Assembly: GCA_965215565.1 (NCBI GenBank)
Contig: CBDCDZ010000004.1
Coordinates: forward strand, 3,296,001-3,360,000
Source of the DNA: Trueperaceae bacterium
GTDB lineage: Bacteria; Deinococcota; Deinococci; Deinococcales; Trueperaceae
DNA length: 64,000 nt
Direction of reading: 5' to 3'
Positions 11,745 through 17,410 of the stretch are shown here, in pieces. A model generated the notes under the pieces. That model was not told where the DNA came from, searched no databases, and was given only the letters and a program-made list of their open reading frames with translations. A program made the translations under genes and the position numbers. Within the stretch, counting starts at the first letter, position 1, and each line of letters opens with the position of its first letter.

Positions 11745-12622
11745 TAGACCTCTTGCAAAAGTCATGAATCGAGGTTGGCGTTGATGAGCCCGGCGATGAG
11801 GTTGAAGCGTAAGGAGAAGCGCTTGCGCCTATTACGGTAAGTTTCTTTGAGGATACGCCAGATCTTGAGCGAACGAATCACATGTTCTACCGCGATGCGG
11901 AAGCGTCCTAGAGCGCGGTTGTGTTGTTTGGCTTCATCACTAAGCTCACCGCCCTTAGGCTTTTTGACGGGCAAGCAGGTCTGTGGATGACGCGTTGCTA
12001 AGCCTTGATAGCCGCTATCAGCGACGTACCAGACTTCAGGTTTACACCTAGGGGCTGTTTCTTTGAACAGCTTGTAGTCGTGCTTGGGACCTTTGGCGTG
12101 GGCTGTTGAAAGAATCCTCGTGTCACTTGCGTCTACCAGCACTTGACTCTTCAGCGTGTGGCGCTGCTTTTTTCCGCTAAAGTAACGTCGCTCCTTTTTT
12201 TGGGCTTCTCAATAGGCGTCTCGGTGACATCAATCAAGACGACAGTCCACTCAATCTCTTCCACCTCGCGCCTTTTAGGTAAGCTGAACTTGCCTGAAGC
12301 GATGAGTACGTCTTCAATCCGTGTGATGATCCGGTTCGCTGTGGACTCGTGCAGTCCGTAACTCGCCGCAATATGAAACTGCGTCCTGTATTCGCGCCAG
12401 TACGACAGCGCTAAGAGCAGTTTGTCCTCCAAGCTGAGTTTGCTTGTGCGTCCCGCCTTCTTCTTCTGCCGTTCAGCTTCTCCTAGAACGTCGAGCATCT
12501 GTTTGAACACACCAGGCTTGACGCCTGTCAAACGTCTGAACCCTTCTGGCGCTAGTCCTCTAATCTCTTCGTATCGCATAGCCTTACTTTGCAGCTATAT
12601 GTCTACTTTTGCAAGAGGTCTA
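11745..12622 (-). mobile_element. Insertion sequence, IS5 family (ISL2-like), about 878 bp
   Basis: Perfect 18-bp terminal inverted repeats TAGACCTCTTGCAAAAGT / ACTTTTGCAAGAGGTCTA (outer TA may be the target duplication) enclosing a split transposase. Confidence 0.93.
11762..12579 (-). CDS. Transposase, two ORFs joined by a probable -1 frameshift
   Basis: ORF A HTH (YWREYRT, IDVTE); -1 shift at the A7 run (12195-12201) gives KERRYFSGKKQRHTLKSQVL into ORF B with ADSGYQG and RIAVEHV. Confidence 0.88.
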
Positions 12623-15359: not shown

Positions 15360-16289
15360 ATGAACGACGTGGACGAAGCTGCGCTGCCGCAAGGACTCTC
15401 CCTTCGTAAAAAAGGGGAGAGCTTAGAGACGGTCTCCTCGAAAGCCATCGAGGTGCAGCTTCTGGCGGCGGGGCAGGGCGTAGAGATTCTTGAAGGAAAA
15501 TTGGGTAAGGGCAAGCGAATAACGCTCGTCCCTTCGGGTAAAGCGCTAGAGACATACTATATTTTGGAGGGACAGTTGCGTAGCGATAGCGATGCTGCCG
15601 CCAGGTCTATAGCTGTGGATGCGGGAGATTACCTCGTGACGGAGTCGCTAGCAGAATCTTACACCCTACTCGCGCAAACTGACGTTCGCTTTCTCTACTT
15701 CACCTCACAACCCACCTTTCACGAGATAAGCGAAGAGTTGGGCGATCTGATGCGGCTCGCCGTCGAAGTCGAAGTCAAGGACGGTTACACCGCCGAGCAT
15801 TGCAGGCGGTTACAGGTGCTCTCCTACGCGGCGGGACAGGAACTCGGCTTGGCGCAAGACAGGCTCTACCTTTTGGATTACGGCGCATATTTACACGATG
15901 TAGGCAAAGTCAAAGTGCCCGCCAACATCCTGCGCAAGCCCTCCACGCTGACCCAAGCGGAATGGGCGCTGATGAAAAAGCACCCTACGTTCGGGCGCGA
16001 ACTGCTCGAGAAAACCTACCTTAAAAGAGCCGGCGTCATCGTCGAACAGCATCACGAGCGTTTAGACGGAAGTGGCTACCCCCACGCACTCTCCGGGGAG
16101 GACGTCCTCATCGAGTCCTATATCGTCGCCGTCGCAGACGCCTACGACGCGATGACCACAGACCGCCCCTACCGCCGCGCCGCGCCGCCAGAGCAAGCGT
16201 TTATCGAACTTAGGAAATACGCCGGGATATACTACCCGAAAGAGGTCGTGCGCGCCTTTATTTCGGTTGTGATGAGAAAAGCGCTGTAA
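15360..16289 (+). CDS. Cupin-like N-terminal domain fused to HD-GYP phosphodiesterase (predicted c-di-GMP hydrolase)
   Basis: LHDVGK, HHERLDGSGYP, VADAYDAMTTDRPYR; N-terminal E.YYILEG.L...GDYL beta-barrel signature; start ATG 15360 or GTG 15348. Confidence 0.9.
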   Translation: MNDVDEAALPQGLSLRKKGESLETVSSKAIEVQLLAAGQGVEILEGKLGKGKRITLVPSGKALETYYILEGQLRSDSDAAARSIAVDAGDYLVTESLAESYTLLAQTDVRFLYFTSQPTFHEISEELGDLMRLAVEVEVKDGYTAEHCRRLQVLSYAAGQELGLAQDRLYLLDYGAYLHDVGKVKVPANILRKPSTLTQAEWALMKKHPTFGRELLEKTYLKRAGVIVEQHHERLDGSGYPHALSGEDVLIESYIVAVADAYDAMTTDRPYRRAAPPEQAFIELRKYAGIYYPKEVVRAFISVVMRKAL

Positions 16290-16776
16290 TACCAAAGTGA
16301 TTTAAGGGTGTCACAAAGTGACAGCCTTAAACGCTCTATGAGCGTAACTTCTAACGTCCTCACATTGTGACACCTCCTTTTCAGTCTGGTATAACACTAA
16401 CAATCTGCGAACACTCAACCAAAACAAACTGGACGCTGTTACGGTTCTGCGTGACGCTTCTCCACCCTCTGAGCGCTCGGGCGGTACGCCGAAGCGTAGA
16501 CTTTTTTGGTACTTGCGTACTCCCTCCTAACTATTGAAAGCGGTATTTCTATACGCTGACGCCGCACAGTTCAGCCGTAAAGTATGAGAACGCTTTTTAC
16601 GTTAATAACTTCATAAGGCCCGCTCCAATCGGATAAGAAGAATCTCACGCACTATTAAAAAAGCTTCTATGAGTTCTCAGTGTGCTCGATGTCACTCGGT
16701 TTCATCTTTGTGAAAAGTCCGCCACGGAGTATTTCAGTACCCATGATACGTTGTGTTTCGAGGTTGATAAGCCTCA

Positions 16777-16867
16777 TCGGAAGCGACGACTTCTGTCCCG
16801 CAAGGAGCTTTGCTAAAGGCTCTTCTGGGCGCTTGGGACAGAAGAAGCTAGTAGCGCAACCGGCCGG
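16777..16867 (+). ncRNA. c-di-GMP-II riboswitch aptamer
   Basis: CGG-AAGC-GACGA-CTTCTGTCC...CTGGGCGCTTG-GGACAGAAG-AAGCTAGTAGCGCAACCGGCCG fits the class II consensus (GGAA.C...GGGCRCUUG...GYUAGUAGYGCAACCGRCC); P1, P2, P3 and pseudoknot pairings all form. Confidence 0.88.
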
Positions 16868-16935
16868 GACGCTCTTCCGGACAACTTGAAAAGCTTTGGA
16901 AAACCGGAGCACGCCATATCAGGGAGGATATGAAA

Positions 16936-17067
16936 ATGAAAAAGTCACTCATCAAAGCGTTGGTTCTTGCTCTTACTCTTACTGCGTTTGGTACAGTTTC
17001 GACAGCGAGCGCTGCCGAAGGTTCGGACAAGGCTCCGTCAGTTCAAAAGTTTAGAGTCAACTGCTAA
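16936..17067 (+). CDS. Secreted micro-peptide precursor 1 (43 aa)
   Basis: GGGAGG 8 nt upstream; MKKSLIKALVLALTLTAFGTVSTASAAEGSDKAPSVQKFRVNC*; Sec signal ending in ASA; paralog immediately downstream. Confidence 0.85.
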   Translation: MKKSLIKALVLALTLTAFGTVSTASAAEGSDKAPSVQKFRVNC

Positions 17068-17087
17068 AGATTAAAAGTTCACCAACG

Positions 17088-17120
17088 AACTCCTCTACGA
17101 AGACGTAGAGGAGTTTTCTC
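17088..17120 (+). terminator. Intrinsic terminator after peptide 1
   Basis: 12-bp perfect stem AACTCCTCTACG-AAGA-CGTAGAGGAGTT followed by a T-rich tail. Confidence 0.85.
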
Positions 17121-17204
17121 TTACCTCTTTTTTGCTGTGAAGTTTTCCACATTGTGGTTGACGCCCTGCAGACGAAATTTAGGGGTAAAAGAGAGAGGGT
17201 ACAC

Positions 17205-17330
17205 ATGAAGAAACTCACAAGCTTAACGCTCGTTTTGATGCTGGCTATCTGCGGTTTTTCTGTGGCGTCTGCGGGTGCTGCATCTTCAGACGGTGAGCCG
17301 TCAACTCAGAAGTACAGAGTCAACCGTTAA
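17205..17330 (+). CDS. Secreted micro-peptide precursor 2 (41 aa)
   Basis: GAGGGT RBS; MKKLTSLTLVLMLAICGFSVASAGAASSDGEPSTQKYRVNR*; same architecture and C-terminal motif as peptide 1. Confidence 0.85.
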   Translation: MKKLTSLTLVLMLAICGFSVASAGAASSDGEPSTQKYRVNR

Positions 17331-17351
17331 GGCTGTAAGCAACATACTCGG

Positions 17352-17383
17352 GCGTCTCCGCGCAGAAGCGGAGGCGCTTTTTT
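17352..17383 (+). terminator. Intrinsic terminator after peptide 2
   Basis: GCGTCTCCGC-GCAGAA-GCGGAGGCGC then TTTTTT. Confidence 0.85.
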
Positions 17384-17410
17384 ATGTTCTGTCTAATTCA
17401 TACTCCAAGG

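Follow-up and report, generated by a model that had tools for sequence, protein, structure and literature searches.

Cytoplasmic receptors for re-imported peptide pheromones are, in the cited literature as far as it was available to us, TPR proteins of Bacillota, and the RRNPPA receptors contain 5-9 TPR or TPR-like repeats (PMC9765709). In the Rap-Phr/RRNPPA systems, e.g., NprR-NprX, PlcR-PapR and AimR-AimP, a short pro-peptide gene of the Sec type lies downstream of the gene encoding a cytoplasmic protein, and the locus that we describe here is like them in this arrangement, in a C-terminal peptide of about six residues, in the tandem peptide units of some precursors, and in a presumed re-import by Opp (available parts of PMC11343458 and PMC9765709). 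It differs from them in that the partner is a cupin + HD-GYP protein with no TPR, with a second messenger as its predicted output, in that a riboswitch is located on the peptide gene, in that a folded precursor form of ~100 aa is also present, and in that it occurs in Deinococcota as well as Bacillota. The leaderless communication peptides (SIP/LCP with RopB; available part of PMC10518010) are very short and have no signal sequence, like the 14-aa forms that we identified in one genus (g43), but the leaderless form here is derived from a Sec-type precursor, and its neighbor is not an Rgg/RopB regulator.

The enzyme shares all metal ligands, the GYP motif and RxY[K/R] with the HD-GYP phosphodiesterases PmGH (4MCW), PA4781 and V-cGAP3 (5Z7C), and is distinguished from these by its N-terminal sensor, a cupin in which the HxH metal motif is absent; the words "cupin" and "peptide" have 0 occurrences in the main text, image tables apart, of the HD-GYP survey (10.1101/2021.11.05.467447). 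The CD1980.2 family of C. difficile also consists of multi-copy small-protein genes turned off by c-di-GMP via riboswitches, but its products are membrane-associated, its riboswitches are of class I and act by premature termination, and its role is in sporulation control; the abstract, which is the part of the source relied on here, names no secreted peptide or adjacent phosphodiesterase (PMC13724677). Compared with the RF01786 family, the aptamer that we identified carries a hairpin insert in P3, and the gene it regulates is a peptide precursor. No description of a cupin-HD-GYP/peptide module was found in the literature that we covered, which is a partial sample, and the supplement of the HD-GYP survey could list cupin fusions. 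The candidate receptor fold, the predicted output and the precursor family match no described system that we found.

The window, i.e., the whole 64,000-nucleotide stretch of Trueperaceae DNA under study, contains two short ORFs downstream of a gene encoding a cupin-HD-GYP protein (Table 1). Re-reading the sequence confirmed the preliminary description of these two ORFs, including their positions, their signal-like N-termini, a CAA/CAG difference, and their tails, PSVQKFRVNC in ORF1 and PSTQKYRVNR in ORF2. A c-di-GMP-II riboswitch upstream of ORF1 and the cupin-HD-GYP partner, neither of which was part of that first reading, complete the locus.

Table 1. Features of the peptide locus, with positions numbered from the first letter of the window.
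Feature	Position	Strand	Description
Cupin + HD-GYP protein	15360..16289	+	309 aa; predicted cytoplasmic c-di-GMP phosphodiesterase, candidate peptide receptor
c-di-GMP-II aptamer, hairpin insert in P3 loop	16770..16873	+	Leader of ORF1, 62 bases before ORF1
Predicted expression platform	16863..16935	+	Hairpin competing with aptamer stem P1; frees or hides the ORF1 ribosome site
ORF1	16936-17067	+	43 aa secreted pro-peptide; SD GGGAGG 16922-16927; predicted signal cleavage after A26
ORF1 predicted mature hexapeptide	17047-17064	+	Length inferred from repeats of related precursors and from long homologs
Hairpin after ORF1	17087..17116	+	13-bp stem, terminator-like, weak U tract
Possible separate ORF2 promoter region	17136..17163	+	TGTGA-N6-CCACA box + TTGACG; kept in three genomes
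ORF2	17205-17330	+	41 aa secreted pro-peptide; SD GAGGG 17195-17199
ORF2 predicted signal cleavage	after A23 or A25	+	
ORF2 predicted mature hexapeptide	17310-17327	+	
Intrinsic terminator after ORF2	17350..17379	+	12-bp stem + U tract; faces convergent aroQ

ORF1 and ORF2 start 646 and 915 bases past the stop of the enzyme gene, on the same strand. In each, a ribosome site precedes a basic N-terminus and a hydrophobic core, after which come A-S-A, a polar linker and the common tail; signal peptides were assigned by rule, from the basic n-region, the hydrophobic core and A-S-A. Two congeners (G001 and G002) retain both ORFs at the same place, with length, frame, ribosome binding site (RBS) and downstream hairpin conserved. 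Relative to G001, the codon changes of ORF1 are 8 synonymous and 3 non-synonymous, and those of ORF2 are 11 synonymous and 6 non-synonymous; across the three genomes, third positions account for 20 of 36 variable sites in ORF1 and 18 of 35 in ORF2. Because both ORFs have an RBS, a signal peptide, a terminator hairpin and conservation in congeners with a synonymous excess, they are, judged from their sequence, real coding sequences. The earlier proposals of two secreted pro-peptides and of selection on the C-terminal tail are supported. The two variants hold as well, with each of the three genomes keeping one Phe and one Tyr version, and a six-frame search of the 4.49-Mb genome for QK[FY]RVN returned exactly two matches, both at this locus.

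No Pfam or NCBIfam match near the cut-off was found for ORF1, ORF2 or the three long partners tested (see below), and the weak NCBIfam matches of these sequences span the signal region only. No differences are listed inside ORF1 or ORF2 among contigs from two public runs of one sample, a comparison that is not independent of the assembly. The ORFs adjoin no transporter gene and, as previously noted, no gene for a RiPP-modifying enzyme. On one side of them is the HD-GYP gene and on the other that of the type II dehydroquinase, which is convergent; a methyltransferase and hypothetical proteins are also encoded nearby.

Many Bacillus Phr pentapeptides have an Arg at position 2, and the two ORFs had been likened to Phr peptides on the basis of terminal pentapeptides with this residue. 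We reject this assignment. The adjacent gene is not TPR/Rap by Pfam and by fold, RapH_N has 0 matches in the genome of the window (G000; a Bacillus subtilis control was positive), TPR_12 has no match within the window, and the unit consists of six residues, with Arg at the corresponding position in only 22 of 58 tails (other states T, E, N, S and K). As a separate observation, all nine RVN-type peptides use AGA for the Arg of the tail (window 17053-17061 and 17316-17324), a codon that makes up 7% of Arg codons in G000; gene conversion or a translation effect is a possible cause.

Further elements surround the ORFs. The region of the hairpin following ORF1 (17075-17135) folds with -20.3 kcal/mol and its stem is kept in the congeners; the hairpin was not called in a consensus terminator scan. 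The region 17340-17395, around the terminator of ORF2, folds with -27.2 kcal/mol. The TGTGA-N6-CCACA box before ORF2 resembles what we take to be a CRP box, and just downstream of this putative promoter G000 lacks 29 bases that are present in G001 and G002; a sigma-70 scan gave no promoter above chance. At 16284-16400 of the window, immediately past the HD-GYP stop, contigs have loose ends and a depth several times higher, suggesting a repeated element, and this region is not conserved in the congeners. At 11762-12579 (-), two adjoining ORFs resemble what is presumably a split IS5-type transposase.

Detailed examination of the cupin-HD-GYP protein identified a Pfam HD_5 match (E 2.8e-28, residues 140-292), and in the predicted model a beta jelly roll that matches cupins forms the N-terminal part and an HD-GYP domain the C-terminal part. 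The protein contains HD, HHExxDGxGYP, the metal ligands and RxY[K/R], with the enzyme residues H147, H179, D180, H208, H231, H232 and D260, the GYP motif, and RxYR (269-272) all present. Tyr143 occupies the place of the third-metal Glu. In the available part of bioRxiv 2021.11.05.467447, a Tyr in place of PmGH E185 is associated with a binuclear site and mainly pGpG as product, and Tyr143 therefore suggests that this enzyme is binuclear, with pGpG as its main product. Among solved structures, the closest by sequence is a 3'3'-cGAMP phosphodiesterase, and c-di-GMP is the predicted substrate here. The cupin HxH motif is absent in 97 of 97 aligned sequences, and two Glu residues are nearly invariant (E42 in 91/97, E64 in 95/97); we therefore infer that the cupin is a sensor and not a metal enzyme. 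No HTH family match was found in this protein. G000 encodes five cupin-HD-GYP genes and six other HD-GYP genes. Cupin-HD-GYP genes were found in 33 of 127 other Trueperaceae genomes, and the 236 genomes from the rest of the phylum gave 3 weak enzyme matches. The unit also occurs fused to GGDEF, GAF or TPR domains, or with a doubled cupin (P0008, P0052, P0059, P0073, P0075, L082 and L105).

Survey of the cupin-HD-GYP loci in Trueperaceae demonstrated an adjacent partner ORF at 52 of the 59 assessable loci (hand tally; 62 loci were fetched, and three contig-end loci were left out), where the partner may be a short precursor with a secretion signal, a leaderless ORF of 14 aa, or a secreted protein of ~100 aa that ends in Asp-Pro + five residues. 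Seven loci have no adjacent partner, and four of these contain a TPR-like regulator, with a different peptide about 3 kb off. Of the five G000 paralogs, four adjoin a secreted ORF with a related tail, and the fifth comes with a TPR-like regulator, past which lies a different peptide. A small secreted neighbor is present within 1.2 kb of 0 of the 6 non-cupin HD-GYP genes of G000, vs 145 of 1281 background ORFs. The tail motif is found in 4 of 175 small secreted-like ORFs of G000, all 4 within 1 kb of a cupin-HD-GYP gene, with a filter that missed two known partners and a motif partly drawn from the same loci. The strict motif, derived from the first loci, matches only 10 of the 36 loci fetched later, and 0.2% of long-ORF ends; a relaxed motif, set after seeing the loci, matches 38 of 52 partners and 1.8% of long-ORF ends; 14 partners match neither. 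A search of 128 genomes for the long partner gave 31 matches, of which 30 adjoin the enzyme or are fused to it and the remaining one is at a contig end; 19 query rows of this search were taken from such loci. All 12 strong short-peptide matches are at cupin-HD-GYP loci, these 12 being themselves query rows. In the ORF lists that we inspected, no further gene is common to the partner loci.

In Bacillota, a secreted partner is present at 13 of the 16 loci fetched. Carriers belong to Paenibacillus, Cohnella, Bacillus, Neobacillus, Ornithinibacillus, Ureibacillus, Alicyclobacillus and Salipaludibacillus; these relatives have the long form, and culturable Paenibacillus and Bacillus are among them.

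Several loci depart from this arrangement. One cupin-HD-GYP clade (L045, L039, L042, L043 and L038) is divergent from a ~800-aa TPR-like regulator, and a 38-43-aa secreted peptide with a different tail type lies near these enzymes. In L107 (3362-3496, -) and L108 (5021-5155, +), the partner has a CxxC before an atypical tail and lies beside a long-branch enzyme. In L101 (3481-4533, -), the enzyme lacks its last 50 residues and the frame continues into a long partner without Asp-Pro, which suggests either a deletion fusion in decay or an error of assembly. At G000:C4:1212103-1216240, there is a 42-aa secreted peptide with a Trp-containing tail, four copies of which stand at the beginning of the divergent subtilase-like gene; a TPR/HD-GYP protein comes next. 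Trp repeats also occur in another subtilase-like gene, which lies behind a weak c-di-GMP-II match at C4:941494.

The partners occur as short (38-65 aa), long (about 76-118 aa, one of 255) and leaderless forms. In the long family an Asp-Pro is invariant, the distance from Pro to the stop is exactly six residues in 79 of 92 homologs, and the consensus end is P-F-R-F-[SN]-R, with the last six residues of the ORFs in the window matching positions 2-6 of this motif. Short precursors of four loci (L044, L040, L077 and L102) contain tandem repeats of a 6-mer in two to seven copies, and where a short and a long partner are present in one locus (L031, L115 and L099) they have a common tail. By these sequence comparisons, the conserved unit is the C-terminal hexapeptide (KFRVNC and KYRVNR in the window), in which the Arg is not invariant. 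A profile comparison of short and long precursors aligned their signal regions alone (probability 42%), and the two forms, as far as their sequences go, have only the tail motif in common. The long partner has a predicted fold with a mean pLDDT of 82, but comparison with solved structures yielded no clear match (best Z 3.1 among 48,161 chains; Foldseek best E 2.3), values that are compatible with either a new or a known fold, and the ESM Atlas gave leads below 0.9 only. Lipobox-like signals are present in 58 of 92 long partners.

In genus g43, one genome contains a normal precursor with a tail close to that of the window, and in three others the ORF is only 14 aa long, with start and tail unchanged and the hydrophobic core missing; a fourth such ORF is on a metagenome contig (L083, L086, L091 and L252). 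Loss of the signal core with the tail kept suggests that the target is in the cytoplasm. Leaderless peptides can also be exported and still act as intercellular signals (available part of PMC10518010). Tandem micro-ORFs of 9-10 aa were observed in L109 (5100-5430, -, four copies), L111 (1050-1165, -, two copies) and L174 (-), each with its own ribosome site and convergent on a divergent cupin-HD-GYP gene.

Upstream of ORF1, the aptamer matches RF01786 over the full model span with 43.8 bits (E 1.4e-7), which is under the gathering score of 53.5. The kink-turn, the pseudoknot and the ligand-contacting nucleotides are all found: equivalents of A69, A70 and G73, which contact c-di-GMP in structure 3Q3Z (available part of PMC13715770), are intact at 16858, 16859 and 16862, and the P4 pseudoknot is GCGC:GCGC vs a consensus of GCAC:GUGC. 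The P3 loop has 33 positions vs 12, and is longer still in G001 and G002, where the aptamer core is retained; Rfam did not detect the G002 ortholog. Contigs with the longer riboswitch insert are also contained in the sample of the two public runs. In fold predictions the SD of the window is unpaired with a probability of 0.66 when the 3' strand of P1 is free, vs 0.36 when it is held, and SD access is predicted to drop on P1 formation at 10 of 11 loci, with several of these drops small. The riboswitch is therefore predicted, from these folding models, to be an OFF switch for ORF1 translation.

A c-di-GMP-II aptamer precedes the peptide gene above the gathering score at 6 of 20 related loci, and below this score in 3 more. 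Before long partners, c-di-GMP-II is present at 1 of 16 loci (L082) and a GAG variant at 1 of 20 (L092), and an aptamer of the c-di-GMP-I class precedes the partner at 4 of 19 loci drawn mostly from Bacillota; most scanned loci gave no riboswitch match. With c-di-GMP-II at some loci and c-di-GMP-I at others, two unrelated RNA folds thus regulate the same kind of gene. The variant classes found before long partners, c-di-GMP-II-GAG (L092:3553-3638) and c-di-GMP-I-GGC (L149:4384-4466), may indicate another cyclic dinucleotide in those lineages. G000 contains no c-di-GMP-I riboswitch, and its other c-di-GMP-II riboswitches stand before secreted or surface proteins; four of them, two in tandem, are above the gathering score (C4:2483145-2484498 and 3833873-3833956) and precede secreted proteins of 160, 175 and 749 aa. 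In genus g43 (L078:5110-5172 (+), L083, L086, L091 and L102), a two-hairpin leader replaces the c-di-GMP-II aptamer 5' of the peptide ORF. This leader has a conserved 10-base loop and double changes in 8 of 17 predicted pairs among five sequences, and has no Rfam match; outside the five peptide loci, all 9 matches to its pattern are inside long open frames. It is a candidate for an unknown riboswitch or a protein-binding RNA.

The tail types track the enzyme clades, which would be expected without any binding because neighboring genes and their tails are inherited together. We therefore compared, in 18 clades and at all 309 enzyme positions, residue charge with the opposite charge at peptide position 3. 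All 4 clades that have Glu-3 have Arg170, and the remaining 14 have Tyr, His or Leu there (r -0.82); the best column reached this value in 1 of 2000 permutations (family-wise), with clade labels that were read from the tree by the analyst and two starred clades split by peptide type, favoring the result. Two of the four Glu-3 clades sit beside non-Arg relatives within starred clades. The window pairs Arg at peptide position 3 with Tyr170, and L030 and L078 pair Glu-3 with Arg170. A like tendency at position 126 falls short of significance (p 0.11). Among 45 additional loci with a partner, which served as an out-of-sample check, Arg170 and Glu-3 are both absent from 43, the other two being Arg170 without Glu-3 (L035, with a tail that is acidic elsewhere, and L174, which is divergent); there were 0 new Glu-3 cases among the 45, and two new Arg170 enzymes are on contigs ending before the partner. 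The co-variation is suggestive of a direct peptide-enzyme contact and is not proof of one. As residue 170 is in the HD-motif helix, the contact would be at the linker/HD surface and not at the cupin barrel alone.

The genes, the coding selection acting on them, the aptamer, the pairing across genomes and the six-residue C-terminal unit can be read directly from the sequences; from these we consider it reasonably probable that the precursors are processed to a hexapeptide which, by binding the cytoplasmic enzyme, completes a feedback loop through c-di-GMP. In such a three-part module of cupin-HD-GYP phosphodiesterase, c-di-GMP riboswitch and secreted precursor, Sec would export the precursors, trimming would yield the hexapeptides, and these would re-enter via an Opp/Dpp-type importer, for which the six family-5 solute-binding proteins of G000 are candidates. 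The hexapeptide would then bind its cognate enzyme at the cupin/linker/HD junction, with position 3 facing residue 170 and perhaps also residue 126 in the linker helix, and binding would alter hydrolysis of c-di-GMP to pGpG, while c-di-GMP would lower ORF1 translation via the riboswitch. An activating peptide would make the loop a positive-feedback switch by which a low-c-di-GMP (dispersal) state spreads from cell to cell; with an inhibiting one, c-di-GMP would rise with cell density. We weakly favor activation. ORF1 and ORF2 would be near-equivalent Phe/Tyr variants, one gated by the riboswitch and the other probably separately promoted. G000 has 33 GGDEF matches, and these, together with the other c-di-GMP-II riboswitches before secreted or surface proteins, make attachment vs dispersal the likely output.

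The peptides could instead be signals read by another receptor, e.g., a TPR protein or membrane kinase encoded elsewhere, with the cupin-HD-GYP protein a co-inherited output or regulon member. This would fit with the 64 TPR_12 matches that G000 contains outside the window, with the four loci where a TPR-like regulator lies between enzyme and peptide, with the TPR and GGDEF domains fused to cupin-HD-GYP in L082 and L092, and with characterized cytoplasmic peptide receptors of the RRNPPA kind all being TPR folds (available part of PMC9765709). We regard it as unlikely, in that partner loci have no other gene in common in the ORF lists inspected, the charge co-variation maps onto the enzyme itself, and paralogous loci in one genome have different tails, as cognate pairs would.

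Binding to the enzyme could also take place inside the producing cell, where precursor that is not exported, or is recycled, would be a cytoplasmic regulator, with export serving as a delay, a sink or a secretion monitor and not as cell-cell signaling, as might be proposed from the leaderless 14-aa versions that persist in four loci, from the tandem micro-ORFs adjoining two divergent enzymes, and from the lipobox-like signals of many long partners, which would remain cell-bound. Deinococcota have an outer envelope layer, and a Sec product may remain periplasmic, which is a further point for such an arrangement. We think this quite unlikely, as precursors of 2-7 units resemble pheromone amplification (available part of PMC11343458), leaderless peptides can themselves be intercellular signals (available part of PMC10518010), and the tail diversity among paralogs suits kin-specific channels.

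A role of the products not as ligands but as secreted effectors under c-di-GMP control (in the matrix, in adhesion or as antimicrobials), with a beta-strand tail, is consistent with the tail alternating hydrophobic and polar residues, and with the secreted or surface proteins that follow the other c-di-GMP-II riboswitches of G000; it leaves unexplained the near-exclusive adjacency to one enzyme family, the loss of the signal with the tail kept, and the co-variation with residue 170, and we consider it very improbable. Conservation of the tail as a nucleotide-level element, or by gene conversion between duplicates, is scarcely credible despite the AGA Arg codon in all nine RVN tails and the Phe/Tyr and Cys/Arg variants that shuffle between ORF1 and ORF2 across genomes, since there is a synonymous excess along both ORFs, signal-peptide character is kept, and the same protein motif ends the long family.

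Returning to a hexapeptide that binds the cupin-HD-GYP enzyme, a broader and more tentative proposal, which we hold as a possibility that is on balance doubtful, is that Deinococcota and Bacillota share a quorum-sensing class with a non-TPR receptor, a specificity that a charge pair (peptide position 3 and enzyme residue 170) sets in part, riboswitches of either class, and a folded precursor module of ~80 aa that releases the peptide at Asp-Pro. In such a class, hexapeptide binding and c-di-GMP-controlled peptide synthesis would together form a population-level c-di-GMP switch; release at Asp-Pro might occur by self-cleavage, and the short, multi-copy and leaderless precursors would be other routes to the same unit.

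If the proposed peptide-enzyme interaction is true, the cupin-HD-GYP protein would be a second, unrelated receptor fold for peptide pheromones, and the orphan sensor domain of a phosphodiesterase would have its ligand. Cell density would be linked directly to c-di-GMP, and Deinococcota would have a peptide communication system.
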